Assembly: GCA_045837725.1 (NCBI GenBank)
Contig: JBEWZL010000036.1
Coordinates: 1-64,000, forward strand
Direction of reading: 5' to 3'
From: Vermamoeba vermiformis
Taxonomy: Eukaryota
DNA length: 64,000 nt
Under the pieces are notes generated by a model, which was not told where the DNA came from, ran no database searches, and saw only the letters and a program-made list of their open reading frames with translations. The position numbers were made by a program, and so were the translations under genes. Shown in pieces: positions 35,629-64,000 of this stretch; positions within the stretch are counted from its first letter, which is position 1; every line of letters begins with the position of its first letter.

Positions 35629-38051
35629 ATGAGCACTGGTCTGCACATCAACAACATCCTCGGTGTAGGCACTGCCAGACACGTGCACTCGTTGTTGCAG
35701 TCACCGCACGATCTCGATACAGTGGGTGCGTGGTACTCCGTCCATATTAAATAGGACATTGAATATTAATATCAGCGCTATGCAGCTCGAATAAATCAAC
35801 TTAAATTCTGCGCTGCAAGACTTTAACTGCCGTTCAATTTCGATTTAAATTCAAATATTCAGCCAATTAAATTCTGCTGTACCCTGCACTAATACAGTCA
35901 TATTTAGATATGCCCATGGGACCTTGCGTGCTTCGTTGGTAAGATCTCAGATCACACAATTTCCTATTTTGGCAATGGTCACTGACTCCCTCTCATAGGC
36001 ATTTCAGTGAACAGCGACGCGTGTTCATGAAACAACTGCACGCAGATGGCATCACCAATCTCTTGCGCGCACCGCACCGCCAAGATGTGATCTGCACCAC
36101 CTCGTACGTCACGTGCCCTAATATAGACCTGCCTTATAACTGCAGCTAATCACGTGCTCAGGTACGGCGGTGAATTCAGATTTTGGCGCGCAGACGAGTA
36201 CACGCCGCTGACCCCCGCAGTGCACGTGTCAGTGGCCAATCACGTGACGCGCAGCACGCCCATCATGCACGCGAGTTGGAGCAGCGACGGACGCTACTTG
36301 GCGCTGAGTTCATTTCACCACGGCGTCGAGCCTGGCGCTGATTTGTTGCTCGAGCGGAATTATTCGTTCATCTCCGTGTACGAGCTCAGTCAGGGACTCG
36401 GTACGTGCTGCTGTTTGACACTTTTGACATCTGACACGTGACTGCAGATCAGCCCAAATTAGTCGCGCAACAGTGCGGAATATTTGATGGCCTGTGCGAG
36501 TGGCACGCGACTGACACGTGTCAAGTGCTGATCATCGCGGAGAACAGACCTGTCACTCAGTGGCACGAGCAGGTCACCACCAAAGACGATGAAATTCCGC
36601 TGCTGCACGTACTGCGCAGTGACACGTGGCAGCTGTCATCGACCAGGGCAGCAGCGCGACCCATATCGGGCATGATCTACGACAAGTCACGTGGTCAGGT
36701 GATTGTCGCGCACATTGACCGCACACTCTCCACGTGGACTGTCAGCGCGCAGCTCACCGTCAGTCACGTGCGCACGAGTGGCACACTGCCAGGCTCAGGA
36801 CGCATCTTGTGTCCCGCGGTGCTGTCAGACAGTCACGTGATTGTCGCGCCGAGTGAACAGGGCCACTATTATTCCGTGCCCATCGAGCACGTGACTGCAG
36901 CTGTCAACCCCGCCAAGACACATGTCACTCCGGGGCTCGTGTACACCTTGGTCCAGTCCATTGTTGACACGTGTCATTTGTGGATTTGCAATGATTCAGG
37001 CGTGCACCGCGCTAAATTTAGCATTACGCACAACGAGGGCGCACCGCAGCTAAAAATAGAACAGTTGCAATCCATCACGTGCTTTGAACTCGCCTGTTGT
37101 GGCCTGGACATCTGTCGCGCCACTGGCAATCACGTGGCCGTCGGAGATTTGACTGGTCGCGTGGTCGTGTGGGACATTTCCCAGCCCACGCCAAAAAAGG
37201 TAATCAACACCGAGGCCATGATCCGCTCGCTGACGTGGTGGCACGAGCACGACATTCAGTACGGCACGCTCAGCGGTGAAATCTACACGTGGTCTGTCAA
37301 CAGCGCACTCGCACCGAGTCTCGTGACAAGTGTGACAGGTGGTGTCACGTGTCTCGCGTGGGATCCGATCAGCCAATCAGTGCTCGCGGCTTCCACCACG
37401 GAAGGTCAGGTGTTCATTCTGTCACGCGCGCATGATGGCACGTGGCACCAGATCGGACTGATCGAAGCACGTGATCAGCAGCCCTACGTCAGCTCGCGCG
37501 AGATTTGGTCCGTGGCGTGGAGTCCTTGCGGAAATTTCTTGGCAACAGGCGGTGAAGATCGCATGACACACCTTCACCGAGTGCAGCGAGTGACAGGTGT
37601 CAAAGTAGAGCCCAAGCCAGAGCACGTGTTGCACGAGAAGAGTGCGGCAGTGACGTGTTTGGACTGGCAAATTGACAGCACGAACAGCGCGGTGTTGGCA
37701 GTGAGTTCAGACGACTGCACCGTGCACTGCTGGCAAGTGATTCATGAACGAGATCACGTGCCCGTCATTCGCGGAGTACTGCGCACCGACAGACGACAGC
37801 TGATGATCACGTACTGCGCCCTCGAACAGCGCGGCACTCGTCTGTTCTGCGGCACCATGGGTGGCTCGGTGTGGCACTGTCACGTGACTGATTGCGACAG
37901 CACGACAGCACACGTCAGACCGCACTTTGGCAGTGTGGAGGGACTGCGGGCCATGTCTTTGCCTGATTTGGGCATCACTCGTGTCGTCACGTGCGCCTCT
38001 GATCTCACTGTGCAGATCACTGATTATCCGATCGATCGAAGGAACTTGTAA
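35629..38051 (+). CDS. WD40-repeat protein
   Basis: WD repeats VAVGDLTGRVVVWD, VTCLAWD, IWSVAWSPCGNFLATGGED, VTCLDW..SSDDCTVHCW. Confidence 0.8.
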
Positions 38052-38293
38052 TATGTACATACAAAGTAAAGGCGGTTGACCAGTAAAACGCGCGTAAATA
38101 GATTCAATAAGCAGCCCTCAGAGATTGGACAGTGTCGACTGCTGAAGGGTGAGTGGCTGTGGCTTGACATTGTTCTTCATTGAATACTTGCAGTACAACT
38201 TGGCTCGAGCTGCAAAGATGCAAATATTGTAGAATTTCGCTTGACTGGCTCATAGAACAATAATGCATAAAAGTGAGCAATTTATTTCCTCAT

Positions 38294-40119
38294 TTAGTAA
38301 ACATAAGGCACAATGCGGTAGGGCACAGCGCGACAGTACTTGTCCCAGTCCTCTTTGCCGTACTTGAGGATGCACCACTCGTTGTCGCGTCGCTCGCGCT
38401 GGATCAACAAGATGGTCAAGAAGATCGCGTTCGTGAACGGCGCAATGTTCAGTGCCATGCAGGGCAAGCCCAGTGCCCAGGCCACGATCAGATCGCCAAA
38501 GTAGTTGGGTTTGCGCGAGTAGGCCCAGAGTCCCGACACGAGCAGATCTCGGCCCTTGCTCGTGCGCACCACGCGCGGCGCTTGACCAGCGATGAGTGCC
38601 GTGGGATCTGCGCGGAACTTGCGGCGCTGTTCATTGGCCACACCGAAGATGTAGTAGCCGAGGAAGAACACCGCGAGCATGGCAGCGATGGTGAGGGGCG
38701 TGAGGGTGCGCGGTGCAGCGAGGGCAGTCCACTCGGGCATGGTGTAGCCGAAGGGCAGCAGCACGGTGTTGCCCCAAGTCAAGCCCCAGCCCATGTGCTC
38801 CACGGTGAAGTCAATCATGCCTGGCTGGTGGTCAGTGCGGGCTATATGGATTGGGCAGTGTACTTACCGAGCACATAGGTCTCGTTGAAGAAGTAGTGGA
38901 AGATGTAGATCTGGTGGAACAGCACGACCAGCACCATCGAGGCCGTCACTGCACCGCTCTGCAGGTACTGTTGATAGGCCAGCAATAGTGCCACCACTCC
39001 CCAGCCACTCAGCGCACGACCTTCGAGGTACCACTTGAGATCTGACACCACCACGTTGAAGAAGCGCGGATTTGGTTCGTAACCGTGGAAGAAGTCGACG
39101 AACAAGTTGCCGTGCGGCAGTCCTTGCTTGAACAGCGCACCCTTCGCATAGAGCAATATGGCAATAGAATAGGCGAACAACTGCGCGACACTGAGCACGG
39201 CACCGAACTCGCGCATGAAGATCTGCATCTTGCTGCTGTCCAACACGCCTGAGTAGACGCAGCCAGCGAATACAGCGAGTGTGAGTACATAGGAGCTGAG
39301 ACCATTCACCTTGTACACGTAGCGTTGTCCGACGGGTGCGGTGGGCCAGCCAGTGAAGTACTGCGCGGATGTGGTCAGTAGCGTGCAGGAGAGCAATACT
39401 GGAGCGTAGGTGCGTGATATATGCTCACTACTATTGTATATAGTGCTGTCTTACCTGACCTGGCAAGAGGATGTGCAGTGCGTACTGGCTAATGAACCAG
39501 CCGAAGAAGATCAGAGCCTGTGCAGCAGAGATTAGTGCGAGGAGACAAGTGCCGCGTTACAAGATAGCACGTCTGTATTAGTGTTGTATTTAGATGGCGT
39601 TGATTCGAACAAATAGTCCATAACAAAGTAACGATGGACCGCCAACTGTCACGCGATCCATTGCAAAAAACTTTTGTAACAAAATGGCTAGACTACAACC
39701 GTATTTAATAGGCATTGTTATTATTAATTTACTATTATTATTAGATATTCGTACCATTACGCAAGATATTTTTCATCGCAGTAATAAAAAAATTACGCCA
39801 CAGATATTATTCACACGGCCAATATTATACTAGACTACGATATATTACTTACGCCCATATAAGTCGGGGCAGGGAACAACAATTTGAGTGCATCCACGAG
39901 AGGAAGAGCGCGCAGGGCATTGAAACCATCGATCTCAGAGCACTGATGCTGGGAGCAGCTGAAGTATAAGAAGTTGACAAAGGTGCTCAGACCTAACATA
40001 ATAGCAATGCAGCCAATAGGACCCGCCATCAGGGCGACGTCGGGGAACGGATCCGAACTCGCTGCTTTGGCTGCAACGGCTTGGTCCGCTTGCTTAGCGG
40101 GAGACTTGTTGCTCTTCAT
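38294..40119 (-). CDS. Sterol reductase (ERG4/ERG24/LBR/DHCR7 family)
   Basis: YKVNGL, DFFHGYEPNPR, LLVSGLWAYSRKPNYFGD, RERRDNEWCILKYGKEDWDKYC..VPYRIVPYVY. Confidence 0.9.
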
Positions 40120-40261
40120 AGTGCTATGTACTGTATACTCGTTGTTAATAACAGCCCGACAACAAATAGCCGGTTTTCGGGCTAACAATTGCTCCGTGAT
40201 CAGCTGAAATCAAATTAGCACGCGTTACGCCTACAGAACACAACAGCACTCAGAGTCAATA

Positions 40262-40959
40262 TGGAGCTACTTACTAAGGACAAGGTGCAAGAGCTGTTCA
40301 ACTTCAAAGAACTGAGCTTCACAGACAACGCACTGGTCAACAAGAAGATTGACAGCGCCAAGATGTAAGTGACGCACTGTAACAGCTGCCCTGCTCACTG
40401 CAGTGTATTTTAGACCGATAGTTGTGGGCTATGGAGTCGATTGGTTTATTCCTGCCAGAAAAACGTGAGTTTGTTTAATTATAATAATTCAAATTGATTT
40501 AATGTGATAAATCTGACTTTGTGACAATGACACAGATTAGAGGCACTAGCAGAGGTGTCGCAAGCAGGAGTTGAGATATATTTAGTAGATCAAGAGCAGT
40601 CTCCTAGCGTTTGTCGCGAGAACAACGTACAACGTAAGACAGCCACATCCACCCTCATAATATAAATATTCAATGGAATCAGACAACACTCCTTCTGTTC
40701 ATATATATATAATACCCACGTATACTCATCACTGCTCACAGTAGGCACGCCATTCGTCAAGGTCTATCACCAGGGCAAAGCAATGCCGTTCAAATTCAAC
40801 GCGTACTCCGATGTGTCGCAGAGTCACGTGATCGATGCCAAAAAAGGCGATGAGCGATTGATGATTGGTGCACTCACGCGCCGTCACGCCACGACACTGG
40901 TCTCTGCGGCAGTGAAGGCGATTAACAGACACGAGAAGTCAATTGAAATCATTTGGTAA
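40262..40959 (+). CDS. Small thioredoxin-fold-like protein lacking CxxC
   Basis: Spliced PIVVGYGVDWFIPARKT|LEALAE..IYLVDQEQSPSVCRENNVQ|PVGTPFVKVYHQGK. Confidence 0.5.
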
Positions 40960-41467
40960 CGGCACACTAGGCGCAGTGTTATTATGACGGGGCTAGAGAG
41001 AGGGAGGGAGATAGATAGAGCGGTGAGATAGAGAGGGGCAGATAAGAGTAGAAAGCGTTATTTATTTGTGTAGTGCTGCACTGCCCCTACTCGTACCTGC
41101 ACCTCATACCAGTACTCATCACTGGAACATGCCTGCTGCACTGTATTCGTCATACTATAGCACTGTATTCATCACTCCATAGCACTATCACCACTACCAC
41201 TATATTCATGACTGCACTATTCTCCAATACAGCGCAATACCATTCATGCACCTGTGAAATGTCAGTGTACGGCAAGAGTCAGCTGACGTAATAAACATTT
41301 GCATCGGTACCCTCACCCATTCTATTATTATATCCTCTATCTATTATCAACTGCAATTCTCAGCGGAATTCGATCCAGCTGGAATAATTCCGAGGGTTGT
41401 TTTTTTGCGTCAAAACAATGAAATTAGTTAAATCAACGCGATCACAACCAGCAGCACAGTAGTTGAT

Positions 41468-42559
41468 ATGACTAGGCCTATATTCTTCGTCGTAGCAGTG
41501 CTGCTGTGTTGTTTAAGCAGATTCACCTCTGCACAGCTCGACTGCACCTTTACTAATTTGAACGAGACACAATCGAGCATTGTCATCGATGGAACGTTAC
41601 AAGGTGCTTATTGCTATCAAATATTGTACGTAATTTTGCATTATTAATGTCGGTGGTTTATTTAATCCAAATTTAAAAACGTTAATTAAAATTCAAGTCT
41701 AATCTTTTCTTACAATAAATATTATTGTGCTATATAATATAAATTTCTAATGATAAATGCATAGTATAATGATATTGAAATTTTTAAACTTTACCCGAAC
41801 CAAATCCACCCGCAAACTCCGTTATTAATCCATAACTATTCAGTCCTACCATCGGAATTGGTAGTGAGGTTCAGTACATCAACTTAACCATCTCCAACTA
41901 CACGCTGGGTGACGCTATCATGGCGTTCTATGATCTGGCGCCGATCAATCAAAAGCTGCTTGGCTCGCTCACTGGCGCGTACAGCGGTGAGGTGCAGGTC
42001 TCGAGCACGACTGGCACGCTGTGGATCATCATGCAGACCAAGGACAAACTCGCGGCACCTGTCACCGTCAATCTGCGCTGGCAGTCCAGTCTCAGCATTG
42101 TAAGTGCTGTTCACTGAACCACTGATTCATGAACCACTCTGACACTGCACCAGGGCAACATCCCCTCCTTCGCGCTGTTCGTGGGCTTGATACTGATGCT
42201 CATCGTGCCGTTCTTGGTGCTGCTCATTGTCACGCTCACCATTCGTCGCCGTGAAGCGCGTCGCGTGCAGCAACTGATGCGCGATGCGGAACAGGGCACG
42301 GACAATCCGATTGGTGCGTGGTCACGTGATTTGAAGTGCTTTTGGTACGCGCGAACTGACACTTTCCTAAATAGGCAAAAAGCACCGCGCAGCCCTGCCG
42401 AAGAGCAAAGTGGTGGGCAATCAACTGATCACCGTGAAGCCACCGCCAACCAAAGCCGAGCACGTGATCATGTGGCTGTCGATTGGCGTCACGATCTTGT
42501 TCTTCGTGCTGCTGTTCACGGGGGCATTCTCGTTCTCATTCCACGACATTGGATTGTAA
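41468..42559 (+). CDS. Signal-peptide membrane protein with a CUB-like ectodomain and two TM segments
   Basis: Signal peptide MTRPIFFVVAVLLCCLS. Ectodomain YCYQI..INLTISNYTL..SSTTGTLWIIM. TMs FALFVGLILMLIVPFLVLLIV and IMWLSIGVTILFFVLLF. Confidence 0.55.
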
Positions 42560-42743
42560 GCGCGATTTGCAAGGACCGCGCAACTGTAATATATTGATGA
42601 TAAAGAATGTGTTCATATGCTCTGCGTCCTCGTGTGCTTGATAGTGCTGTGTTTGATGTAGTTCACTCGTCCTCGTAGTGTAACTCGTGCCATTCACTGC
42701 GCAATTATTTTTGTTAGCATTGATCTGACAGCGAACACTGGTC

Positions 42744-44441
42744 ATGTTTTCAGCGCGACTGGTTCAACGTATGTATTTAATATTATTGGCGTACTATCTC
42801 TCTTATGGAATTCAAAGCAATGTTACTAGCGACAAGATCTGGATCTGACAAAGAATAATTAAAATAATTTTAAAAAATAGGGCTTAACCAGCGAGTGGTC
42901 GGAAGAACAACGTACACAAATAATACAACCACTAATATTAAAAACAATCGATTTTCAACTTCAAAACAACGACGCAATGCAGATGAGAACAAACAATTGC
43001 AAAACAACGCTGAATCAGGCCCTAAGCATGTAAATAAACAGACTGCGAGTCAGACACCGGCGACGCATCAAGTACGCATGCCTGGTGAGGGCGCAAGCAC
43101 GCGCTTCAAAGTCGGCTTGTTGGCTGGATCTGTTGCCCTTGCACTGTTCGGTGAGTTCACTCAGCCAGTACTCGCATTCATTGCATGTGTATATCGCACA
43201 CGAGTATATATGTGCACTTATAAGGACTGCAACTATTTTGGATGGAGATAAGCAGCCAGATCTGCAGATCCGCTTCCTTTCTTTGCACTGCACAGTACTC
43301 TTCACCACATACATTACAGCGATATATATATATGCAACCAATACTCACACGCTACGCACTACAGGAGGCTATTTGCTGGGTCGTCAAGCCACACAACGAG
43401 GTCCGCGCCAAACACTGAGTGCGCGCATTGCTCAGCTGATCGATCAGATTGACAGCGAGATCTGTACGTCCTAGTGATATTAATATATATATATACACGC
43501 CTGCTGCGACTAACACTGCACCAGCCACGCGTCTGCACCGCTACGTGTTTGGTCCCGTGCAGACGATGAGTCTCTCGTACTTGAGTGCTGCGCGCATCAC
43601 ACACAAGCTCGCAGAACGACTCAGCGCGGGCACACTGACACTCGACGACGAGGGACGACACCGCGCACGACTGCCCCCGCCCCTGCCACACCCTTTCGTG
43701 CGACCACTGACGGTGCTCATCTCGCTCGAAGCAGCCATGTACTACAGCGATCGATCGCAAGCTGATGCACTGCTGTTGAAGGACTTGTTGACGGACGAGA
43801 ATCGCGTGGCCAAGGCCCTGGCAGCGAGTGAGGACGAGATCATTGCAGACCCACAGCTGCGCACCATTCGTCAACTCGCGCGTGCTGGTGCGGCGGACAG
43901 CGAGATCAAGCCGCGCAAGCGACCAGGTCTGGACAACTTCCTCGCACACCTCGCGCCACAAGTGGAGCTGATTGTGTACACCGATCAGCCCATCTACAAC
44001 GCCGAGCCCATCATTGAGCGCATGGACCAGGACGAGCTGCTCGATTACACCCTGACGCGCGAGAACGGTCTGGTGGCGTACGACATGCCGCTGAAAGATC
44101 TGACGCGCATTGGTCGTGATCTGCGCAGCTGTGTGGTGATTGACTGCAAGCCCGCCACGCTGCAGACTGACAACTTGCTGCTCGTGTCGGACTGGGACGG
44201 CAACAGACAGGACTCGGATCTGTTGGACATTGTGCCCTTCCTCGAGTGTACGTAGTGCTGCTCACTAGTGGTGACCGCTAACTGACCTCATTCAGATCTG
44301 TCGCGCCACGCCAAGCAAGGTGGAGATGTGCGCGACATCTTGCGCCAGTACAAGGGCAAGAACATCCCTGCACTCTATCGCCAGCGCCGTGCTGGGCCTG
44401 GACAGGGTCAACAAGCTGCGAAGAAGTCTGGCTGGTTCTAG
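42744..44441 (+). CDS. TIM50: Mitochondrial import translocase Tim50-like (NIF/FCP1 domain)
   Basis: Presequence-like N-terminus and a TM segment, then LPPPLPHP..LTVLISLE..KRPGLDNFL..ELIVYT..KDLTRIGRDL..VVID..WDG..DSDLLDIVPFLE. Confidence 0.8.
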
Positions 44442-44762
44442 TGCGCACGTGCATTCACTCGTGTAGTGCGCTGAACACACTGTTGTAAATAAATACTAAT
44501 AAAAAGAAGCGCGATCATATCCAGTTGTTGGTGTGAATGAGCAGCGTACGAACACGCGAGTGATTATGAGAGGATGATTATATTGGATTGGCGGCGTTGA
44601 TACATTCGTCCTCCGCGTTACATTAGCATTGATCATGGATGGAGCACGCATTCACTTGAATGATTCTGTTTATTCGCAACAGCTGCACATATATATATCA
44701 CAAGTTCGCTATTGTTCCTTAGCCCCCTTATTATCAACCCCCACTTCAATCCCTCTGTGTTG

Positions 44763-45788: not shown

Positions 45789-48018
45789 TCACTTCCGCTT
45801 CAGGCTCTTCTGTCGCTGCAACACAGTGTCGACAGAGCTCGAGTAGCCAAACAGCTTGTTGTCGTTGACTTCGAGCAGTTTGAGGGCCTGTTGCAGCTTG
45901 GAGCCAGTGACGAGGTGCTTGAAGCTGAGCTTCTTGCCCTTCTGAAAGTGCGCGATCAGATCCGGCAGCGTGCTGTACTCCTGACCGTCGAACACGAAGC
46001 AGTCCTTGCGCTTCTGCACTCTGAAGTGCATGTACTCGCTCTGCTTGGTCTTGGCACTCACCGCGTAGTCGCCAGGCGTGGCGGACAAGCGCACCAAGAA
46101 CGAGCCAGGCTTCTCATCGACCAAGCGCCGCTCTGCGTCCTCGCGACTCATCTCGCCGAAGAAGCCGCTGTGTCAAGTGGTGAGTACTGGACAGACACAG
46201 CCTACTAGTGGTAGGTGGTACTTACTTGTGCGAGACAATGCCGTACACCTGCGTGATGAAGTTCTGACTTTTCATGAACGGACCGTACCACGCCAGAGCA
46301 CTGCCGAATTGTTCCACCGACACTTTGCCAGTCTCACCAAAGGCTGCTTTGAGACACACAAACTTGGGGTCAGTTTGATAGTCGCGCGGCACGACAATGT
46401 TGAGATAGGTGGCGAGCGAGACGAGGAACTTGCTCCAGGGCACATCGAACTCGGTCAGGAAGTACTTCTCCCAGAACAGCTTGCCTTCGTCGTCCTTGAT
46501 CGCCTCGTCCATGACAATGCGGTAGAAGATGTTCGACTCGGCAATCTGTTCGAAGCTCGGTCGTTGTGGCGGCTCTTGCATCGAACACCGCACGATCAAG
46601 TCGCGCAGTTGACGCGGACAGTCTTTCGGAATTTCGGGCCTGCGACCTTCCCGTCCTACCACGCGAATGAAATCTGCAAATGACACGTGTCAATCAGAGG
46701 TCCACACCGTACAGTAGCGCCACAGAAACTATTTCCAGACCGACTCACCTTCGACAGTGCGCAGCTGATCTTGCCAGGGATAGCGCTCTGTGACGAGTTC
46801 CCAGAGAATCATGCCGAACGAGTACACATCTGTTGACACGTGTCAGCGCTAATTATAGAAACGTGTCAAAATCACTTGCCTGTTTTGTCATCGAGCTTCT
46901 CAGGAGGTACACCTAAAAACACTTCAGGGGCCTGTGGTCCGAGGTCAGTGAACTGCACGCGAGTATACACAACGTATGTGCACTTGCCATGTAATTCGGA
47001 GTGCCACCAATCGAGTTCACTTTGCCCTTGAACTGCGAGATACCAAAGTCCGCGACCTTCACGACCCAGTTGTCATTCACGAGCAGATTGGCGGGCTTGA
47101 GGTCCAAGTGATAGATGCCCTGTTTGTGCAGCCAGTACATGCCCAGTGCCGTGTCGCGTGCAATCATCATCTTCTTGCGCATCGACAGCTTCTCTTTGCG
47201 CAGCAGCGTGTACACACTGCCCTTCGGCATCAGCTCCGTCACGATCTTCAGCTTGCCGCCCTCGGTGCACAGGCCCATGAACAGCAGCAAGTTCTCGTGG
47301 CGCAGACGCGTCAATATAGCCACTTCGTTCTTGAAGTCTTGCAGCACCGTCTCGTCCACATTGTCGTTCAAGATCTTCACCGCCACGTCTTTGCCGCGAC
47401 ATCGGCCCTTGTACACGGCTGCAAAGGCCCCTGAACCGAGACTGCTCTTGTAGTCTATCTTAATCTCGTTGTCTTTGATCTCCCACTGCGCCACTTCTCG
47501 ATCTGCCGAGTCACTCGGATTGTAGTCCTCTTGCTTGGCAGTGTTGAGCTTGGATATGGGGCCTATCAGGGGTATCTTGGTGCTCAGCAGTGTTGATTTA
47601 TCTGCGCATGTAACGGCAATTAATTTCAAAGTACAAGCGCAGATCAAGCGAATATTTTAATCGATAATTTAAGTTTAATGTAGATGTGATTGTATTAATT
47701 TAATAACTGGTTTAAATAATATTCTCATTAAACCAAGGAGATATATATATTTGGCGTATTGTCACTATAATTACCTCGTTTGTTTTTGAGTTCCAAGCGA
47801 CGCACTTCTTGTTTGAGTGCTAATAGCGATGCTTTTTTCATCTGATATGCATCTAATATTTTCTTTTCATCTTCTTCAAATAATTTGAGCTGCTCTGGGT
47901 CCTTTTGATTAATACCCAAAAAAGTTGCATCCAAGACTTCCATCTCAGACTCCAGCTTTTCTAGATCCTCGACAACGAGCTGCAGCTCTTCTAACTTTTC
48001 AGCTAACTCATCGTCCAT
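45789..48018 (-). CDS. TKL kinase with C-terminal SH2 domain (Dictyostelium SHK-like), N-terminal coiled coil
   Basis: LGSGAFAAVYKGRCRGKDVAVK, HLDLKPANLL, ADFG, APE, GKLFWEKYF, SH2 GFFGEMSREDAE..PGSFLVRLS. Confidence 0.88.
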
Positions 48019-48166
48019 GGTGCTCGAGTATACTGCTACGCTATGAATGCAATTCAGAGTTGTGCGCGTGACTTAATCGTGCCAGTTAAGTCCAGGCCAC
48101 TGACGTCACTTGTGGGCAAGGTGCGAGGTATTAGTATGAATAGTAGCAGCACTACCATGAGGCAAG

Positions 48167-50334
48167 ATGTGGAACAAATTTAACACGCTCACCAATCAGT
48201 TTTCAAAGATTACTGAAATTACTAAAGATCTGCTCAAAGACGATCGTGAAGGAGAGGACGATGAAAATGACGAGGAGTATGATGAATATATTAATGATGT
48301 AGACCATTCACATGATCCAAACAACTCTCAGCTGCGACGTACCAGTGGCGATGGATCAGCTGAAAATATTAATAATAACCCCAAACAAAATAAGACTCTA
48401 TTCCTCACGCAGTTAGTGCAAACTCAAAAGGAACAGGCAAGTAATAAATTTATTAGCTTACTCTAATTATATTCAAACCTCATTTCCCAGCTTTCGAGTT
48501 TGAAATCTGAATCCAGCAAGCTGCGCAGACAACTGCAAGACAAAGACCGACAACTCGAACACGTCATTCAAGAGCTCAGCGAACTGCGTGCCATGCGAGA
48601 GGTAAGACTGCATTGGACTCATTGGACGTACGACTGACTGTTTTGCAAGCACGCTGTGAATGGCAGCACCATAAATGGCAATGTGCCACCACGGGACACT
48701 TCCGACAGCGAGTTGATCAACACCGCCCTGATCGATGAGATGTACCGCACTTACTGCGACAGCAACGACACTGTCAAAGATGTCAATCTAAAAATAGCTG
48801 CTGTTGCGCGACAGTTGGCCTCGGCGGTCAAACTTAGTCAAAAAGCTGCAAACAAAGAAAAAGACGAGCGACAGTGGCGCGAGATGACACGTGACCTGAA
48901 CGAGCAGTTGACAGCGAGCAGACACGAGTGTCAAAGTGTCAAATCTCAGCTCGAGATATTGCAGCGTCAGTTGGAGCAGTACGATCACGTGATCAAATCT
49001 CCCGTGTCAATTTCAGGTACGGAGCACTGATGACCTTGGTGGCACTGACTGACAGCTGTCAAAAATAGATCTGCAGCAACAAGTTGACACGTTGACGCGC
49101 ACCAATGCAGCCCTGGTGAGTGATCTCGACAAACAGACGCAAACACTTGCTGTCACGCGCCGCGAACTCACTCAGCTCAACGAGTAAGTGCTAAAAATAG
49201 CTTCTCAGAGCGTGCCACTCATCATCTCGCGTGCAGGGAGATTGAAATGCTTCATGAACAGCGCGCACGTGACAAGAGCAATCACCAGCTCGAGATTGAA
49301 TCTTTGCAGCACGAGCTCGACAAGGCAGTGAGTCAGCACCAGAGCGTGAAACAATTCGCGCTGGACCAGGCACGTGACTCGGAGGAGGAGATTGAACGCC
49401 TCGCTGCCCTGGTGGAGGATTTGCAGCAAGAGAATGCAAAGATCACGCGACAGCTCAGTGATCGCGTGCACCTCGAGGTAAGTCAGCGGTTGACACGTGT
49501 CATCCGAAGTGTCACCTACTGACACGTGTCAAACAGGAGCACATGCAGCAGCGCGAAGAGGAGACAGCACGTGTGCGCGAAGAATTGACCAATCTGCGTC
49601 ACGTGCTCGATGCTATAAATAGCGAATTCGCCGTGGATCTCGAGGCCAAGACAGCTTTGCTTAAAAAGGAAAATGCGCAGCTCTTGCAACAGCGCGATGA
49701 CGCTCTCAAAGCCCTGGAAGAAGTCAACACCAAATTAAGTAATGTCACGCATGACAGCGGCAAGAGTCTATATTTAGAACAGCAGCTAGAAGCCAAGGAC
49801 AAAGAGATTGAAAAGTTGCGCGCTGAGAGTACGTTTGACAGGTGTCACTCGACGGGTGCCGCGATAATCTAACTTTCCTTTTTTGGTCGTAGTTGGTCCA
49901 TTGCGACGCATTCTCGAAGAGGCTATTACGCGGCTGAAAATGAGCGAGCAAGAGAAGAACAAAGACGCGTTCATTGACAAGTAGGCTAAATATAGAGCAG
50001 TGTGCTAATAATAGACACTAACGCCCTCACTCACAGACAAGTAGTCACGCGCCTCATTGTGACGTACATCAGCGACAAGTCCAAGCGGCGTGATGTACTC
50101 GAATTGATGGCCAAGATCTTGCACTTCACTGACGAGGACAAGAAGCACGTGGGACTCATTCAGACACGCTCGTGGTCTATTTTTAGTCCTTTCAGCTCCC
50201 CCTCAAAGAATGCCAATCCCAGTGCACCACTGCCACTGCCTGAGGGCAAGTCACTAACGGACCTGTGGGTTGACTTCTTGTTGGCTGAAGCTGCAGCTGA
50301 GAAGAAGAGTGACGTCACTGCGCCACCCCAGTAG
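48167..50334 (+). CDS. Coiled-coil golgin with C-terminal GRAB/GA1 region (GMAP-210/Rud3-like)
   Basis: Long heptad exons. C-terminus VVTRLIVTY..KRRDVLELMAKILHFTDEDKKHVGL..SLTDLWVDFLLAE. Confidence 0.75.
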
Positions 50335-52078: not shown

Positions 52079-53225
52079 TTACACAGTTTTATTTTCTGTC
52101 TCGCTCGACTTCTTGGGGAACCATGGAAAGAAAGCATTTGTAGTCAGCTGGTACTCTTTGTAATCTTTGCGTGATTTGACTGCCTGGGCCTCCGTAGGTG
52201 GAATGCCAGTGACACGTGTCACAGCCACGTACATGAGTGCTGGCGACGCGACCCCAGCGAGCAGTGTCCACGGTGTGTGTGCACAGAGTGGTACGTATGA
52301 CAGCCAATAGATCCACTCGAAGAAGTAGTTCGGATGGCGCGTGTAGTGCCACAGTCCCTCGCGACACGTGCGCGCAGCATTCTCCGCACGTGATCGGAAC
52401 TCGCGCAGTTGTCGGTCAGCAGTGCTCTCGCCCACCACTGCCACGGCCCACAGCGAGGTCGCGAGTGCCACACTGCGCGGTGCTGGCATTGATCTCCGCG
52501 CGGAGATTGCGAGCAGTGGCAGCGAGAGAATGGAACTCAGCAGCGCTTGTGCTTGAAAGAATAGGAACATGTTCTTGTCAGTTTGATTGCCCCATTGCGC
52601 GCGCAGTTGTTGGTAGCGCTTGTCTTCGGGGGCTTCAGATCCGATGCGCGATGTTAAATGCGAGACGAGTCGTGCGCTCCATGTGCTGCATATCAATGGG
52701 TCAGTATTCTGCGCTGGTGCAATAGAAAGCAATAGCTCGCTAATTAGGGATAATATCAACACGAGGACTGCGTATTGAGCCTCACCTGACCATCACTGCT
52801 TGTACCGCGCGATTGAAGACGAGACCTGTTGCATAACGCCTATCATACTCCATCCATCAATATATATATATCAGCTAGTCTCACCTCGTCCCTTCGCAGC
52901 ATAGAACAAGGACAGCGCACCGAGCCCTGCAGTCCAGCCTACATCTACAATGTTCGCATTGCGCGTGTGTTGCTGATACACCCACAGCCCTGTCATAATA
53001 CAACATCAACTACTATGCTATACACAAGTGCCTATTGTGCTCACCGCCCTGCATGACTGACATGCCGGCTAATCCGCCCACAAATAACTTGACTGAACCA
53101 AGCGATTAATTAGCTATGCGCAGTGGAAATATTATCATGGCGATACATATAGATAATTGTAGTATATTTCGCTGTATTATTTAACAAATGAAGTCAACTA
53201 AGATCCACGTACTTGAATGCAACAT
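52079..53225 (-). CDS. DUF1295 / steroid-5-alpha-reductase-like membrane protein
   Basis: EDKRYQQLR..W, FQAQA, ESTADRQL..F, CREGLWHYTRHPNYFFEW, GIPPTE, YKEYQLTTNAFFPWFP. Confidence 0.85.
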
Positions 53226-56543: not shown

Positions 56544-57842
56544 ATGTTGTTGAGAGATATATGTGTACGAGCCAGCAATTTGTCCAAGCGTTCCAATGTA
56601 CGTTAATCTGGATCCGGATCAGCGTGAATTCAATTTCGTGTTAGCTGCGTAGACAATACGAACAAAACATTATTAACAATATTATAGTATTAATACTTCC
56701 TGTCCAGATATTACAACGCCGTTACTCGACAGATCCCACATCTGCCAAAGCAGCACTGCTTGAAAAAAGAGTACGCCCTCAATAGCCCGTCAATATCACC
56801 GCTAATATTATGCGCACTACAGAGACTACGCGATCACATATTACGTGCCTCCACTCCCGACGCCATCCTGGTGGCAGTGAATGCGACGCACATGACCAAG
56901 ACTGCGCGCCACAAACATCATCTGAGCACCACTACCACACAACTACTCGGTCTGTAACTATATGCTGCACCCTCGAGGCACATCTGACACCTTTCTCTCT
57001 GTGCAGGACGCGCCCTGTCCGCAGCAGCAGCCATGTCCTCGTTCATGAAAGGCGATGAGCGCGTGTCACTCACGTGGCGCGGTCGCGGTGACTTGAAGAC
57101 CATGTACGCTGAGGCTAGTCGCAACGGTGAAGTGCGCGGCTACGTCACGCCAGCAGATCTGCATCTGCCCAGCAGCACGCCCCTCGGCTACGCACTGCGC
57201 ACAGGCGTGCTGAGTGTGAGTCAGGTGCTGTACAATCACGCCAAGCCCTATCAGTCGATGGTGGAGCTCGCAGAGGGCGATGTGAACAGCGATGTGGAGC
57301 AGTACTATCGCCTCTCCGAACAGATACCCACACTGCTCGCCATGGAGACGGTGCTCGATGGTGCGGGCGAGGTGTTGTTCAGGTACGTGCTGCGGGTATA
57401 TATATAGACATATGTACATATATAGTACTCACTGGTGTGCAGCGGAGGAGTGCTGATCCAAACAGTGCCGCAGACCGATGCGCCGAGTGCCAGCACGCAG
57501 CACGTGATCGATCGATATCGCGAGCGACTGCGCACACTGAGTCCCGCGAGTGTGCTGTTCTTGGACGAGACGAAGAGCCTCGAACAGCTGCTGCACGTGA
57601 TCGAGCCCAATGTGCGCGCAGAGAGCTTTCAGAAGCTGCTGTGTGACTTCTACTGTCGCTGCTCCAAACAACGATTCCGCGACAGTCTGATCACCCTCGG
57701 CGCGCAGCAGCTGAGCAGTGTGTTGCACGACATGGAGCACGAGACGACGTGCACGTGTCAGTACTGCAACAACCGCTACGTGTTCTCCAGACCTGAAGTC
57801 GAACAGCTGCTCGAACACGTCACGAGCAACACTGTAAAGTGA
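56544..57842 (+). CDS. hslO: Hsp33 (HslO) redox-regulated chaperone, probably mitochondrial
   Basis: LLG|RALSAAAAMSSFMK..G.G.L..MYAEA..GEVRGY, YQSMVEL..G.V..D..QYY..SEQIPT, GGVLIQ.VP, Zn sites CRCS and CQYCNNRY. Confidence 0.85.
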
Positions 57843-57984
57843 GCTGCAAATAAAGACATTAAAATTATGACGGTAGTGTACTGTCACGTGGTTTGAAATT
57901 TCGTGTCACGTGGTGTTTTGGCGCCAAATCCGCCCAATTTATTTAAAAATTGAATTACACGAGTCGCACTGCAGACAATGCACG

Positions 57985-60900
57985 ATGAGTGGCATAACTA
58001 TACTGGGTCAATATAAGCCACTCACCTTGCGCGAAGATACGGCGAGCAAAAATTATTTCTTTTTTCGACCCGATGACAAGCTGGTAGATCATGAAGAAGA
58101 GATATCTATTCAAGACAATATAGTAATATGGACGGCTGGTCAAGTCGTGAAGCGCAAAATCACATTGGAGCACCGAGTAATACAAGTCGTCTGGGCTAAT
58201 TTTTCAGCTGATCCAAACAAAAACACCAAGACGGACTTGTGTATTCTCCATCAGGGTATGGATCACCGGTAATATTCAACTATTATTAATGCAATAAATT
58301 CAGAGGGTCTGTACGTGCTCGTAGATCAAGGCGGCAGTTCGTATTGGGATGTACACGTTTCATTGCCGTGCAAGGTCACAGCTTTATGGTGAGTCGATAG
58401 ATGCATTATTACAGCCGCCATACTAACCACTACTAGGGCTGTTCATCGCGGCGTCATTCTGCAACGACGCACGACCAGCAGCACATCCGAGCCAGGCCTC
58501 GAGTCCTTGCCCGTGTACTTCTCGCTGCTGCATCCCCTCGAAGAGATCAAGCCCCTCGCATTCATGCCGCACACACACGGCGCTGAATTCACGCAAGAAC
58601 TGACGCTGGTTGCCTGTTCAGATGTGTTGCCGCACGTGGTGTTCTTTCATGAACGGCGCATGCAGCACAGTGTGTGGCTGCTACGACGCCGCGCGAACAT
58701 GCACCGCGAACTGACCTATGCCCTGGCCAAGCAACAGGACGCGATGGAGAGTGACGGCGAGCAGATCCAGTCCGAACTGTTCCTCGAATTGATTTACCTC
58801 GCGACTGATGTGCCGTCACGTGCCACACAATTAGTGCTGTTCCAGGACCGCGAGCTGGTACGTGCTGGCACAGTGCCACTTGTCACAGAATGACAGCTGT
58901 TGTTGACACTTGACAGGGACTGCATTACGCGGTTTATTATCCCGCCATTCATGAACTGCGCACGTGGCGCATCGATCACGTGACACAACTCAGCCCTGGT
59001 CGATTGACGCGACAGCACGTGCACGCAGTACAGCCGCTGCACGGTGTGCCGCACAATGTGGTGCTGATCGGCGATCGATCGGTGCACGTGGCGAGTCACG
59101 TGATGTTGGTGGTGCAGGACAGCGCGCAGTCACGTGATTGGCTGTTGGTGGTGCAGGCCGTGCAGCATCAGATCTGTGCCTGGCCAGTCGCGGAGTATTT
59201 AAATATTCCGCACTCGATTGTTCCGCGACGCAGTGCCACGCCCCTCGCACTCACTCCGACACGCACGCCGCGCAAAGGTGAGAGTTTGACACGTGTCATG
59301 CAGCCAGTGGTGCCAGAGCTCGATCACGTGACCATTGAAGACAGCATCGACACGCGCTTCAACGTCGTGGTGCAGTTCCGTGCGATGGATCCGCTCATCT
59401 ATCGCGCGACACTCTCCCTCACCCCGCGCTCAGTGCTCACACGTCACGTGCTCAGTGCGCTGCGTGGCGTAGTGCCACCACAGCTGTACGATCACACCGT
59501 GCGCGTGCTGCTGCTCGAAGCTGATCTCAGTGGCGGAGATGAGTGGCAAGTGTTCGCCTCGTTCATGAAACAGTTGTTCCGCACGCATCTCTTGCAGTCT
59601 GCTGGCACTGCAGCTAATAATAGCACACAGGACGCGTGGTCTGCGCTGTTGTCGAGCAGTCACCATCGACATCACGTGGAGGGAAATTTCCTCTCGAAAT
59701 TTCGCAAGCCACTGCCGAATTTGGTCAATGTCGCAGCGGACAGTCACGTGGCCCTGGACACGTCACACGTGCAGGCCTTCAAGCCGTATTTGGCGCAGAT
59801 ATACCACGCACTGCACTTGGTGTACGAGGACTACAAGCTCGATCAGCTAAAAATAGCGCAACTGTCCGCACTCGCAACGCTGCTGATCGAATTGAGTGTG
59901 GTGGCACAGTGCCACGCCTACACGGATCATTATCTCCGCGATGTTCCGCAGCTCTACGATCACGTGCGCGCAGTGCAGCACGCATTGACACCTGTCAAAC
60001 GTGTCGCCGAGTTCATTCCCGAAATGGCAACACCTCCCTCGATCTATTTTTGGCTCATGACTGCACTGCGTTACCCAGACAATATTCCGCCCTATCCGCT
60101 GTTGACAGGTGTCACTGACTCGCCCTTCGAAGTGACACGTGCGCTGTGTCGTGTCTATCACGTGATTTTAACGTCACGTGATCACCCGCACTACTGTCCT
60201 GCAGTGCCACCACGCCTCCACGTGACAGATTCGTTCGATGGCCCGATGCCACCGTTCATGAATGCCCCTGCTCCTGTGCAGAACAGCGCCGAAGTCGTTC
60301 ATGAATGGACGCACGTGCTGGTACAAGAATCGAATCTCCTCGAAATTTCATTGCCTTTTGGTGTCGCGCAGTTGATCCGCGAGGCCCTGGCCAGTGTACG
60401 CCACATGCCACCACGTGACAGTCCAGCGCGACTGTTGACAGCACTCGATCGACTCGATCTGCTGGCACTCTATTATCCCGAGTACGTCACGTGATCCATG
60501 TTTGTGCTCCTACTAATTGCCTAATTTAGTATGTTGCCACCCAAAAAAGTACTCGCCTCCGCATTTGATCCGAGTCAATCTCCCGAAGATCTCCCCGAGT
60601 CACGTGATCGCATTGACGGCACTGAATTGGTACGTACAGCGTGTTTCGTGCAGACGCGTGTCTGACAGGTGTCACCACAGAGCAACGAAGTGTCATTCAT
60701 GCGCTTCGCCAAAGACACGCGTCTCAAAGAAGTGCGGCGATTGTTCCGCTCCTCGCACGTGTTCACCGTGCACTACGGACACGAGGACGGCGAAGATGTC
60801 GCGCAGGGCCAACAAGTGCGGCTGTTGCTGCACGCCAACAAGTATCTCGCGCGCACGGTGGCACGTGGCATGTTCACGCTGGGCACGGACACGCAGCTCA

Positions 60901-63708
60901 AGCCACTGTTCTCGGAGAGCATTCCGATCCCGGAACTGAGCACCACGGCTAAATTTAGACCGCAGGGCACGACTGTCACTCTCGATCTGACACCGTATCC
61001 CGATTTGGTAATGATTGCTGCTCTGCATTAGCTGTCCCTCACTGACACTAAAAATAGCTGCACTGGCCCGAGTTCCACAACGGAGTGGCCGCTGCACTGC
61101 GCGTGCCCCCCGAGCTGAGCGCGCAGATCACGAGCACGTGGATCATCTATCAGAAGAACACGGCGGAACTGACCAATGGCCACGCAGGGCTGTTGCTGGC
61201 CCTCGGACTGCAGGGTCACTTGCGCGCCCTGTCGCTGACCAAAGTGTACGAGTACTTGAGTGTCAGTCACGAGTTGACAGGCATTGCGCTGCTGCTCGGC
61301 ATGGCAGCCTCCAAGCTGGGCACGCAAGACACAGCGATCAGTCGCTTGTTGTCCGTGCACGTGACTGCACTGCACCCGCCCCTCAGTCAAGAGCTCGATG
61401 TGCCCTTCAGACTGCAGACCGCGGCACTGCTCGCACTCGGCATGCTGTACCGTGGCACCTGTCACCGTCGCATTACCGAAGTGCTGCTGACCGAGATTGG
61501 TCGCAAGCCCGTGGAAGAGAAGCAACAAGCGCGACCATTCGAGCGCGAGAGTCACTCGCTCACTGCTGGTCTGGCCCTCGGACTCGTGGTGCTGGGCCGC
61601 GCGGACTCGGCGACTGGTCTGCACGACTTGGACATTCAGCAGCGCCTGTTACGGTACATCACCGGAGGTCCCTCCGATCAGCGCAGTGACACGCGCACCA
61701 GTCTGCTGTCACAACGCGCGAGTGATCGGGCCCGATCGAGCACAGTGCTGGAGGGCACCTCGATCAATGTCGACATCACTGCCCCTGGCGCCGTGCTCGC
61801 CCTCGCCCTGCTCTATCTCAAGTCACGTGATCGCAGTGTGGCAGCGCGCATTGACATCCCCGACACGTGCTTTGCATTCCAGTACATCCGCCCTGATCTC
61901 GTGCTGCTGCGCGTGCTCGCCAAGAATTTGATTCTCTGGGACGACATCCAGCCCACCGCGGAGTGGATCGAGGGTCACGTGCCATCGGTGATGACAGGTG
62001 TCAAAGCGCAGCTCGGGCGCGAGATTGAGAGCGGAGATGCGCAACAGACACTGCGCCAGGGCTACTTCAATGTGCTCACGGGGGCCTGTCTCGCGCTGGG
62101 CTTCAGATTTGCAGGCACCGCGCACAGTGCCGCCAAGCTAGTGTTGACGCAATATTTGCAGTATTTCATCAAGCTGCAAAGAAGCAAATTTGACCGCGCA
62201 GACAAGAACATGCTGGAGTACTGCATGAACAGCGTGGCCCTGGCACTGAGCATGGTGATGAGTGGCACTGGACACCTCGGCACATTTAAGTACGGCCCCT
62301 CATTGCCTTATTTGGTAATTGCTGACTTCTATTTTTAGAATTCTCCGCACACTGCGCAAGCGAGTCTCAGTGGATGTGACGTACGGCAATCACATGGCAC
62401 TAAATATGGCAATCGGATTTCTATTTTTGGGTGGTGGTCGCTACACGCTGGACACCTCCGCGCAGTCCATCGCTTTCCTTTTGTGTGCTGTTTATCCGCG
62501 CTTCCCGCAGAACTGTCGCGACAATCGCTATCACCTGCAAGCTTTGCGGCACTTGTACGCACTGGCTGCTGTGCCACGGTACGTCAATGCCTAAATTAGG
62601 AATACGCATCTAACGGAGTCTATTTTTAGCTGCATTGAAGTGCGCGATGTTGACACGCAACGACCGGTCTACGTGCCACTGAACATTCACTTCAGACCTG
62701 ACTTTGACACTTCGGAGCATGTCATTCAGTACGTATCTCACTTTGACACGTGTCATCAGTTCACTGAACCTCTCGCTTGACAGATTGACAGCGCCGTGTC
62801 TGTTGCCACCAGTGCAGTGGATTACAAAAATAGAACTCGCCACGCCACGTTACTGGTCACTGACACTGTCACGTGATCGTCACGCTGCAACACACCCTTT
62901 GACACTTGTCTGCAGTGACACCTGTCAGCGCAGTCCCGTGCTGCACGTCAAGCGCAAGTCAGCGTATCTCGATTACGATCTCGATCCCGACGGCGTCAAG
63001 TCCCTCAGTGCACGGCCCTACTCGCAGACACTGCGACTTGACAACTTGACAGCTGTCAGCACCGTGCTCGATGCTAAAAATAGACGCGAGTTGTTGCTGG
63101 CATTCTCCGCTGACCCGCACGTGCTCGCATTCGCCACGCACTTCGCATCGGGCAATGACACGCGTCAAGTAGCATTCTGCACGGCAGTGTTGCTGGAGTG
63201 CCTGTCAGCGGAAAAATTGACGATGATTGACACGTACTTGACACTTGACCGTGTCGTGCAGTGTTTGACACGTGACACCGCGCCGAGTGCGTCCGAGCTG
63301 TGGAATGTCAAACTGATCTGTCAACTGTACACCCGCACTGACTGGCCCTGGTTGACATCTGACACGTCACCGCTGCTGCAACTAGACTACTTGACATCTG
63401 TCAAACTGAAGCTCGAGAGCTACTTCGAAGATTTGACTCGCCGCGCTGGTCTGTCGCGTGATGATTGGCTGGAACTTGCCAAAAAAGGCTATCTTTCTTC
63501 GCGCGAGAAACAGCGCCACGTGATGCAGCTGCAGCACTACTACGAAGTGCCACCACCTGTCATTCTGAAACACGTGCTGGACCTGCCGCGCCCTGATTCA
63601 GCCGCGCATTGGACACTATTTTTAGCACCACTCGCTCAATTCAGTGAACTGCGCCAGCACGACGCGAGCACAGTGCTATTTTTAGCTCGTGTGCTGAGCA
63701 GCTTGTAA
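57985..63708 (+). CDS. APC1: Anaphase-promoting complex subunit 1
   Basis: FSLLHPLEEIKP, LHLVYEDYKLD, RFAKDTRLKEVRRL, WPEFHNGVAAAL, HAGLLLALGLQGHL, INVDITAPGA.LALAL.YLKS, YGNHMA, DNRYHLQALRHLYALA. Confidence 0.95.
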
Positions 63709-64000
63709 ATACACTTCCTTATTTGTAAAATTACCCCCGATCACCACTAGGTGTCAGATGATTGGTCCGTTGACTACTATAGCAGCGACGTTGACAGCAC
63801 TGTCAATCACGTGACTGTCACTCGATCACGTGCGCAACAAGTAGCGAGCATCATTTTAAATTTCACTTGCAGCAGAGCACAGCGCCCATGCCACGATGCT
63901 CAAGCTGAATATCGGAGGCGTGAAGATCAATACCGCGCAACAAGTCGTGCTGCGTACTGGCCAGAATTACTTCACTAAGCTGCTCGCTGGTCAGATCCCT

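Follow-up and report, generated by a model that had tools for sequence, protein, structure and literature searches.

Dense arrays of palindromic words occupy particular transcription units within a 64,000-nucleotide stretch of Vermamoeba vermiformis DNA (contig JBEWZL010000036.1 of GenBank assembly GCA_045837725.1, positions 1 to 64,000 of the forward strand), which is referred to here as the window. The hexamer CACGTG shares these units with other palindromic words, which together with it make up at least five families. It is the gene for a WD40-repeat protein (36024..38051, + strand), the gene for a golgin-like coiled-coil protein (48161..50334, + strand) and the gene for subunit 1 of the anaphase-promoting complex, APC1 (57042..63708, + strand), that are strongly rich in these words, while two further genes are weakly rich, and all statements on richness refer to this sample of one 64-kb window. 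The word-rich state is specific to particular genes of the window and not spread over all of them. The words exceed codon-based null models, are symmetric with regard to the strand, follow fixed dimer-like and composite spacings, and persist, with turnover of individual sites, in related species. The interpretation that we favour, with a probability of roughly 0.45, is that the arrays are locus-specific collections of putative sites to which several dimeric proteins would bind, and that they serve as a DNA signal within gene bodies.

CACGTG exceeds composition and codon null models

Among the hexamers of the window, CACGTG is over-represented most strongly. It was counted 108 times, compared with 23.2 ± 5.1 in dinucleotide shuffles, none of which (0 of 100) reached 108, and its copies are distributed very unevenly, with 11 in 1–28 kb, 97 in 28–64 kb and 23 within 36110–37993 alone. 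In the WD40 open reading frame (ORF, 1617 nt), 19 copies are present, as opposed to 7.2 ± 2.0 when synonymous codons are shuffled with the protein kept (maximum 15 in 1000 shuffles) and 1.9 when the order of the codons is shuffled. The APC1 ORF at 58914–60494 contains 20 copies, and the corresponding expectations are 7.2 and 2.3. Since the excess holds over both types of shuffle, codon choice and amino-acid adjacency are both bent towards CACGTG. All three codon frames are occupied (26/11/13 over four ORFs), and the word is also found in introns, with three copies in the 105 nt of two WD40 introns, two in introns of a protein kinase gene and one in an intron of the gene at 41.4–42.6 kb. These results agree with an earlier note on this DNA, which had estimated about 23 copies for 36.1–38.0 kb and about a dozen for the first 28 kb, had described sites in all frames and in introns, and had set beforehand, as the test of its claim, whether the enrichment would be lost under a codon- or dinucleotide-preserving null; the excess persists under both. 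Its statement that sites are sparse near the 5' ends of genes applies to the golgin-like gene, the first 500 nt of which are free of CACGTG, in part to APC1, with two copies over the same length, and not to the WD40 gene, with six.

The flanks of CACGTG show an R-K preference. A search for long hairpins or extended palindromes around the word revealed only an enriched 3-bp TGA/TCA extension (10 cases versus 1.3 expected) and none longer than 4 bp. No periodicity was found in the spacings of CACGTG within the window, and a spectral peak at 171 bp in the spacings of all words in APC1 is at chance level, given about 3300 frequencies tested. Single copies of the words also occur in promoter-like intergenic DNA, namely at 35148, 35680, 40825, 53307 and 63808/63827.

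Word richness is a property of particular genes

The density of CACGTG reaches 11.3 per kb in the WD40 gene, 6.3 in APC1, 5.7 in an abhydrolase-like gene, 4.2 in a DUF1295 gene and 4.1 in the golgin-like gene, as opposed to 0 in a Kelch/PKD ORF (3249 nt) and in the ERG24, NIF, SNARE and proteasome alpha genes, 0.7 in the kinase gene and 0.4 in the first 28 kb. The similar density that had been claimed for WD40, golgin and APC1 genes therefore stands insofar as it is high in all three, but golgin-like gene and APC1 attain only about half the value of the WD40 gene. Enrichment was likewise confirmed for the range originally proposed (36100–63850), but extends beyond it, as five sites lie at 32.1–32.7 kb. 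When pooled, the rich genes contain 74 copies versus 9.6 in dinucleotide shuffles, and the poor genes 8 versus 7.3.

Rich and poor genes are alike in GC content, in GC content at third codon positions (GC3) and in the observed/expected ratio of CpG (CpG o/e), which is close to 1 throughout. Codon usage is alike as well, with CAC accounting for 0.83 and 0.85 of the His codons and GTG for 0.60 and 0.60 of the Val codons in rich and poor ORFs, respectively. In a synonymous-opportunity test, every place was counted at which the protein permits CACGTG via synonymous codons. Such permissive sites are actually CACGTG in 53 of 71 cases in the rich ORFs (18.8 expected from codon usage) and in 4 of 27 cases in the poor ones (2.4 expected; Fisher p = 1e-7). 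As the permissive sites of the poor genes are left unfilled, a universal mutational pressure that is merely restrained by protein constraint is disfavoured. Intergenic DNA contains 0–2.3 CACGTG per kb, apart from a 187-bp stretch after APC1, and where it is AT-rich it has few copies of the motif. CATGTG/CACATG, into which CACGTG would turn by deamination, shows the same depletion in rich (0.29-fold) and poor genes (0.27-fold). The mutation/repair or methylation sink that the earlier note had put forward as one possible cause is thus disfavoured as a general force by the near-expected count in poor genes, their unfilled permissive sites, the CpG o/e of about 1 and the motif-poor AT-rich intergenic DNA.

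Further palindromic words and their geometry

Further words were identified by contrasting rich with poor genes and by testing against codon nulls. The pentamer TGACA/TGTCA occurs at 9–12 per kb in rich genes versus 0–5.6 in other genes and longer intergenic stretches. Its 12-bp inverted repeat TGACA-SS-TGTCA (TGACASSTGTCA) is present in 18 copies versus 0.05 expected, nine of which read TGACACGTGTCA. CTAWWWWTAG was found 20 times versus 0.68 expected, 19 of them in 36–64 kb, TTCATGAA 12 times versus 2.04 expected, and GAAATTTC five times versus 0.2 expected in the rich genes. Words of several families sit in exons and introns. Counts per kb of CACGTG and of non-overlapping TGACA words are correlated over 28–64 kb (Spearman 0.49, p = 0.002). 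Taken together, the words cover 14.3% of the bases of the WD40 gene and 10.6% each of the golgin-like gene and APC1, which corresponds to one site per 38–56 bp (38 in the WD40 gene), whereas coverage ranges from 0 to 2.8% in the first 28 kb and the remaining genes tested.

The geometry of the words is strict. Inverted repeats of TGACA and TGTCA were found 19 times at a spacer of 2 and 0–2 times at each other spacer from 0 to 12, while everted and direct arrangements of TGACA are rare. The dinucleotides in the spacer are CG (9), GG (5), CC (2), GC (2) and TC (1), that is, S-S in 18 of 19 cases. TGA...TCA flanks are common to CACGTG (9), CAGGTG/CACCTG (7) and CAGCTG (2). The non-palindromic TGACA appears 59 times and TGTCA 52 times in the sense strand of + strand genes and is thus independent of orientation, and CTAWWWWTAG is present in both A-rich and T-rich versions. 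Five of the 12 TTCATGAA sites have a CACGTG 5–7 nt further on, and a symmetric composite, CACGTG-N4-GAAATTTC-N4-CACGTG, lies inside APC1 (57885..57912). Palindromy, fixed spacing and orientation symmetry suggest that dimers recognize the words as duplex DNA. By their consensus, which is a matter of resemblance only, the words look like E-boxes of the bHLH/bZIP type and like MEF2/Rlm1-type MADS, HSF-like and TALE-like sites. The CACGTG words have the CANNTG core and the symmetric flank preference of E-boxes/G-boxes, and the 20 matches to CTA(A/T)4TAG (0.68 expected) are putative sites of the MEF2/Rlm1 type. Of words akin to heat-shock elements, only the two-unit words TTCATGAA and GAAATTTC, with fixed AT centres, are enriched; an array of at least three contiguous inverted nGAAn units was not seen in their contexts, and the likeness to such elements is partial.

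The two richest genes have their putative start codons, ATG 36027 (WD40) and ATG 57045 (APC1), inside TTCATGAA words, in the context CGTTCATGAAA (36024–36031 and 57042–57049). A 21-nt patch, CGTGCTCGATGCTAWAAATAG, is common to the golgin-like gene (49602–49622) and APC1 (63063–63083) with 20 of 21 positions identical; it is read in the same frame and gives the peptide VLDA(I/K)N in two unrelated proteins. A second patch is shared by 42051–42069 and 61451–61469 (18 of 19 identical), and further families of 18–24 nt exist.

Effects on the encoded proteins and persistence in relatives

The dipeptide His-Val (HV) occurs 31 times per 2174 residues in the proteins of rich ORFs versus twice per 2763 residues in those of poor ORFs, a frequency about 20 times higher than in the proteins of neighbouring genes, and 27 of the 31 are encoded by CACGTG versus about 50% expected. 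The inflation of this dipeptide noted earlier is therefore borne out, and the peptides QHVHAV (59013) and SHVALDTSHVQ (59742) cited as examples are present in APC1. Compared with composition-shuffled expectation, HV is in excess in the WD40 protein (11 versus 3.0) and the APC1 ORF (13 versus 3.7) and also in the relatives P0006 (14 versus 3.6), P0013 (8 versus 2.1) and P0003 (4 versus 1.1). No such excess was present in the five distant APC1 orthologues in which it was looked for. APC1 of the window has 13 HV sites and that of its 80% identical relative P0158 has 14; ten are shared, three are specific to the window and four to the relative. The density of sites is both old and stable, with turnover at the level of individual sites. 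The expectation that residues at HV sites would be non-conserved among orthologues did not hold within the clade, where residues under the words are conserved like the rest of the protein.

Close relatives of the WD40 protein are 69–99% identical and the next one 29%. APC1 has one relative at 80%, the others being at most 37% identical, while proteasome alpha is 59–66% identical to named amoebozoan, chytrid, other early-diverging fungal, plant and animal proteins. Judging from these identities, the lineage is poorly sampled. In the relatives P0002, P0009, P0012, P0014 and P0015, an extra WD40 intron seems to follow the residues LAVSS and to be read through in their gene models; the WD40 gene of the window is continuous at 37700–37720, and so close relatives seem to differ in the presence of this intron.

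No relative was found when metagenome contigs were scanned with protein patterns, nor did the WD40 alignment yield a match among genome contigs of viruses and prokaryotes. A scan of metagenome DNA for three clustered CACGTG returned at least 117 stretches, and none of the 117 listed matches the window (blastn E 1e-5, tblastx E 1e-8). The densest 23 of these loci mostly have regular spacings and are tandem arrays. Tandem units that each contain a CACGTG, with periods of 12–49 bp, were seen in the loci L016, L020, L030, L097, L102 and L106, among others, and show no BLAST kinship to the window.

Interpretation and alternative explanations

On the interpretation favoured here, dense palindromic-word arrays would run through exons, introns and probably untranslated regions (UTRs) of selected transcription units, and the words, i.e., CACGTG, TGACA-SS-TGTCA, CTAWWWWTAG, TTCATGAA, GAAATTTC and TGACA half-sites, would be putative duplex-DNA sites of dimeric sequence-specific proteins. 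Locus-specific selection on the DNA would keep the density of the arrays high, and this selection at the DNA level would override codon choice and shift amino-acid adjacency towards pairs such as His-Val and Thr-Cys/Trp. The arrays, if bound by proteins, may mark or open long, modestly transcribed units, and candidate roles are chromatin opening, an anti-silencing 'licensing', nuclear positioning, or the action of intragenic enhancers in a compact genome with very short intergenic spacers. The gene-body chromatin signal that had been suggested as the other possible cause of CACGTG accumulation fits the data better than a sink, but is too narrow, since at least five word families with dimer geometry are concerned. 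A more far-reaching version, which we hold only tentatively, is a gene-class-specific 'gene-body code', in which putative dimer sites through exons and introns would be maintained by selection across species at the protein's expense and would mark transcription units.

A number of points weigh against a functional reading of this kind. No gene for a cognate factor was identified, the family names given to the words go no further than a resemblance to consensus sequences, and one site per 40–55 bp of coding DNA far exceeds any known regulatory need. There are only three to five rich genes, all of which come from the single 64-kb window, and the split into rich and poor genes is not explained by function, strand or 'housekeeping' status; the latter had originally been taken to characterize the genes concerned, but is not the determinant, as the proteasome alpha, ERG24 and SNARE genes are without CACGTG. 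The depth of coverage by RNA contigs, a poor proxy for expression, has no simple link to word richness (about 6–11 for WD40, 6–101 for ERG24, 12–154 for the Myb gene and 0–3.6 for Kelch). Length and weak conservation of the encoded protein are common to the rich genes, and contig depth of the WD40 gene is modest; yet the Kelch/PKD ORF is comparably long, weakly conserved and barely covered and is without words, and the first 28 kb are nearly word-free, too. Finally, residues under words are conserved at background level (83–91% versus 86–87% for WD40 and 87% versus 79% for APC1, at the protein level, neither difference being significant), so that purifying selection at the level of single sites is without support, and turnover at constant density is compatible with a neutral equilibrium as well.

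These last points lead to the possibility of a locus-dependent, non-adaptive drive, by which bound proteins or a bias in repair or gene conversion would favour word-bearing alleles in certain chromatin, recombination or transcription contexts and leave the arrays as functionless by-products. Such a drive would agree with the constant density despite turnover (three sites lost and four gained among the 13–14 HV sites of APC1), with residues at word positions that are no better conserved than background, with the weak conservation of the proteins encoded by the richest genes (identity to the nearest protein outside the clade is at most 37% for APC1 and 29% for WD40), and with the location of the words in introns in the case of the conserved kinase. 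However, it would have to affect five unrelated palindromes simultaneously while keeping their dimer geometry fixed, and to spare neighbouring genes mere kilobases away; unconstrained intergenic DNA and long AT-rich introns are word-poor, the weakly conserved Kelch/PKD ORF is devoid of CACGTG and a 28-kb block is nearly without words. We consider this explanation unlikely, though by no means far-fetched. A sequence-specific DNA methylation or a system akin to restriction-modification, with repair that shields or re-establishes the target palindromes in the manner of very-short-patch (VSP) repair or of HIP1-linked methyltransferases, appears rather improbable. Every word is palindromic, like the sites of such enzymes, and the strong avoidance of other palindromes (CCGG at 0.27–0.29 of expectation, CCWGG-containing words at 0 versus 5–8) hints at a sequence-specific DNA chemistry; but there is no CpG deficit, three word families contain no CpG at all, CACGTG is at expectation in poor genes, and TGA...TCA flanks common to CACGTG, CAGGTG and CAGCTG fit a protein family better than a single enzyme site. 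The equal depletion of CATGTG/CACATG in rich and poor genes speaks in the same direction and, together with the normal CpG frequency, sets the words apart from a sink of the VSP type.

The shared patches of 21 nt (20/21) and 19 nt (18/19) and the further families of 18–24 nt bring to mind short mobile or templated patches, that is, tiny palindromic elements or copied pieces of 15–25 nt that are inserted in frame into tolerant genes. This is decidedly improbable, given that most sites share just 6–12 bp, that long arms are lacking, only the 3-bp TGA/TCA extension being enriched and nothing beyond 4 bp, and that alignments with 80–88% identical relatives show no indels at word positions; with arms of at most 4 bp beyond the core and no such indels, the words also differ from miniature mobile elements of the double-hairpin type or resembling miniature inverted-repeat transposable elements (MITEs). 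It is highly improbable, too, that the words act in pre-mRNA as splicing, stability or structure elements. Although they are confined to transcribed units, introns included, and TGACA resembles the branch-point-like CTGAC near the 3' ends of introns, the non-palindromic forms are about equally frequent in both orientations of the sense strand, and this symmetry contradicts a role at the RNA level. Inverted repeats such as these are typically recognized in duplex DNA, and two CACGTG and four TGACA/TGTCA lie in the 187 bp after the APC1 stop codon. Virtually no weight, finally, can be given to the idea that codon usage, amino-acid composition or the structure of WD repeats has produced an artefact. 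The rich ORFs contain slightly more His, Val, Cys and Arg, and two CACGTG occupy equivalent V-T-C positions of WD repeats, but rich and poor ORFs do not differ in their use of CAC and GTG, the excess amounts to 2.7-fold over the protein-keeping null and 9–10-fold over the codon-order null, and it extends to non-repeat proteins (APC1, golgin-like) and, for CACGTG, to introns. The codon nulls, the equal codon usage, the synonymous-opportunity test and the intronic copies exclude this candidate.

Should the arrays be functional, they would show how far a signal at the DNA level can override protein coding in a eukaryote, with about 10–14% of the bases of some genes taken by five palindromic words. 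They would then also provide a natural system for the disputed idea that factor binding in exons shapes codon and amino-acid choice, with the advantages of a short, clean list of words and of control genes in the immediate neighbourhood. If a non-adaptive drive is at work instead, this would be a eukaryotic counterpart of the problem posed by the cyanobacterial palindrome HIP1, with locus specificity as an additional puzzle. On either reading, the words would mislead gene finders, models of codon usage and scans for selection when these are applied to this lineage.

Comparison with known systems

Words in excess that tag an organism's own DNA or license genes are known from bacterial DNA uptake sequences (DUS/USS), which serve competence and are not gene-specific, and from the PATC of Caenorhabditis elegans, periodic A/T runs in introns within gene bodies that are linked with the licensing of particular genes and do not consist of palindromic, protein-site-like words. 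The words reported here differ from uptake sequences in that they lie in spliced eukaryotic genes and are symmetric in orientation. Transcription factor sites within coding exons that bias codon choice are known as 'duons'. The likeness is that words resembling recognition sites lie over codons and measurably bias codon choice (53 of 71 permissive sites versus 18.8 expected); the difference is that here, where the evidence comes from sequence, whole genes are filled at one word per 38–56 bp by several families together and dipeptides are visibly altered. Duons have been exemplified in plants (PMC6790085; 10.1101/085795).

The Arabidopsis intron-mediated-enhancement motif TTNGATYTG acts from transcribed sequence and independently of splicing (PMC6760150) and, like the words described here, is a multi-copy DNA word inside the transcription unit, in intron or exon. 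The motif acts only within about 1 kb of the transcription start and is not palindromic, whereas the words of the window are palindromic and extend over the full length of genes of up to 6.7 kb. Yeast general regulatory factors, such as Cbf1 at CACGTG, Mcm1 and others (PMC5880240), share the CACGTG core and are abundant factors that organize chromatin via short consensus sites. Their sites are mostly located in promoters and sparse, and dense intragenic arrays are not known to be a feature of theirs. The closest known phenomenon is HIP1 (GCGATCGC), a cyanobacterial palindrome that is hyper-abundant, lies inside ORFs and has been argued to owe its maintenance to selection and not to a bias in repair, its gene-level function being given as not known (Xu, Lawrence and Durand 2018, PMC5861425). 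Both cases concern a short palindrome that occurs within ORFs far beyond composition. However, HIP1 is one word, spread genome-wide in prokaryotes with a periodicity at 10–90 kb, whereas at least five words are found here in particular transcription units of a eukaryote, with no periodicity detected; CACGTG is concentrated in a few transcription units of the window and does not show the general spread of HIP1. The analogy to HIP1 drawn in the earlier note accordingly extends to the excess beyond codon nulls and the effect on proteins, and does not extend to the distribution. In the library of open-access papers that was searched, no description was found of gene bodies, in any eukaryote, that accumulate CACGTG or combinations of these words.

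Genes and other features of the window

The region 28–64 kb is a compact eukaryotic gene array with genes for Kelch/PKD, abhydrolase-like, REVEILLE-like Myb, WD40, ERG24, NIF phosphatase, protein kinase, golgin-like coiled-coil, DUF1295, SNARE, proteasome alpha and APC1 proteins. Contigs from three probable-RNA runs (three studies) match it at 95–100% with GT..AG joints, which shows that both the sequence and its splicing are genuine. The WD40 gene is the densest case, with 23 CACGTG, 25 TGACA/TGTCA, two CTAWWWWTAG, two TTCATGAA and one GAAATTTC. It consists of exons 36027–36103, 36162–36400 and 36448–38051, encodes 639 amino acids with Pfam WD40 matches, and is covered by spliced RNA contigs from three runs; the gene model is 88% identical to the relative P0006. 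Intron 1 (36104..36161, + strand; 58 nt, GT..AG) is predicted from boundaries that restore the frame and agree with P0006, and it contains CACGTG at 36110 and 36151. Intron 2 (36401..36447, + strand; 47 nt, GT..AG), where an RNA contig piece begins at 36447, contains two TGACA and TGACACGTGAC adjoining a branch-point-like CTGAC. The golgin-like gene contains nine CACGTG, 22 TGACA/TGTCA (10.1 per kb) and seven CTAWWWWTAG; its match to the GRAB domain is weak (E = 1.4e-4, under the Pfam cut-off). APC1, identified by the Pfam domains Apc1_MidN (4.7e-18) and APC1_C (2.5e-20), has 42 CACGTG, 62 TGACA/TGTCA, nine CTAWWWWTAG, six TTCATGAA and four GAAATTTC. The 187 bp between its stop codon and the next ATG (63709..63895, + strand) are either the APC1 3' UTR or the next promoter.

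Two genes on the minus strand are moderately rich. The abhydrolase-like gene (32100..32976), with weak Pfam matches, has five CACGTG and one TTCATGAA-N6-CACGTG composite, and the DUF1295 gene (52079..52792; Pfam DUF1295, 7.3e-52) has three CACGTG, one of them as TGACACGTGTCA at 52210. In the protein kinase gene, two short introns and the exon between them (46674..46879, − strand) are delimited by RNA joints 46673/46749 and 46829/46880. Both CACGTG of this gene are TGACACGTGTCA words in these short introns, and CTAATTATAG adjoins one of them. The Kelch/PKD gene is a single-exon ORF of 1082 amino acids (28493..31741, − strand) that serves as a contrast, with no CACGTG versus 1.1–1.6 expected. 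Its GC content (0.55), GC3 (0.68) and CpG o/e (1.06) are as in rich ORFs, its codon usage is that of the host, and its RNA-contig depth is the lowest of the covered stretch. When a foreign origin of this ORF was examined, no close prokaryote relative was found, and NCBIfam matches were obtained for none of three ORFs tested.

The second contrast, the block 1..28000, has 43% GC and contains 11 CACGTG and one CTAWWWWTAG, with neither TTCATGAA nor TGACASSTGTCA. It is uniform in GC and has short ORFs only, among them ankyrin repeats (9301–10143), kinase fragments (17110–17511 and 27675–28109), a RING finger (17953–18285) and a weak Ulp1-protease match (20266–21030). In 28–64 kb coding regions, CCGG is avoided beyond codon nulls (0.27–0.29 of expectation, five copies per about 11 kb in rich and poor genes alike), CCCGGG is absent, and CCWGG-containing words are likewise avoided beyond codon nulls (ACCTGG 0 versus 5.9, CCTGGA 0 versus 6–8). 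In the first 28 kb the avoidance is less pronounced (0.58). The scarcity of CCGG and CCWGG may point to a sequence-specific DNA modification or a restriction-like pressure.

Among the introns defined by RNA joints at 34697–47775, most of the short ones (47–75 nt) are rich in GC and have a branch site resembling CTGAC near the 3' end, and the long ones (113–335 nt) are AT-rich and poor in words. The 5' splice sites of this region read GTAAGT, GTACGT or GTGAGT. For the joints 46829/46880 and 46929/46986, ends other than GT..AG were reported, the exact boundaries being ambiguous. The intergenic region 50500–52000 is the sole CpG-poor part of the window, with CpG o/e down to 0.35–0.59, and within it, at 51044–51170, lies a 19-bp tandem repeat of five overlapping, GACAGGGTGTCCGTCCA-like copies.

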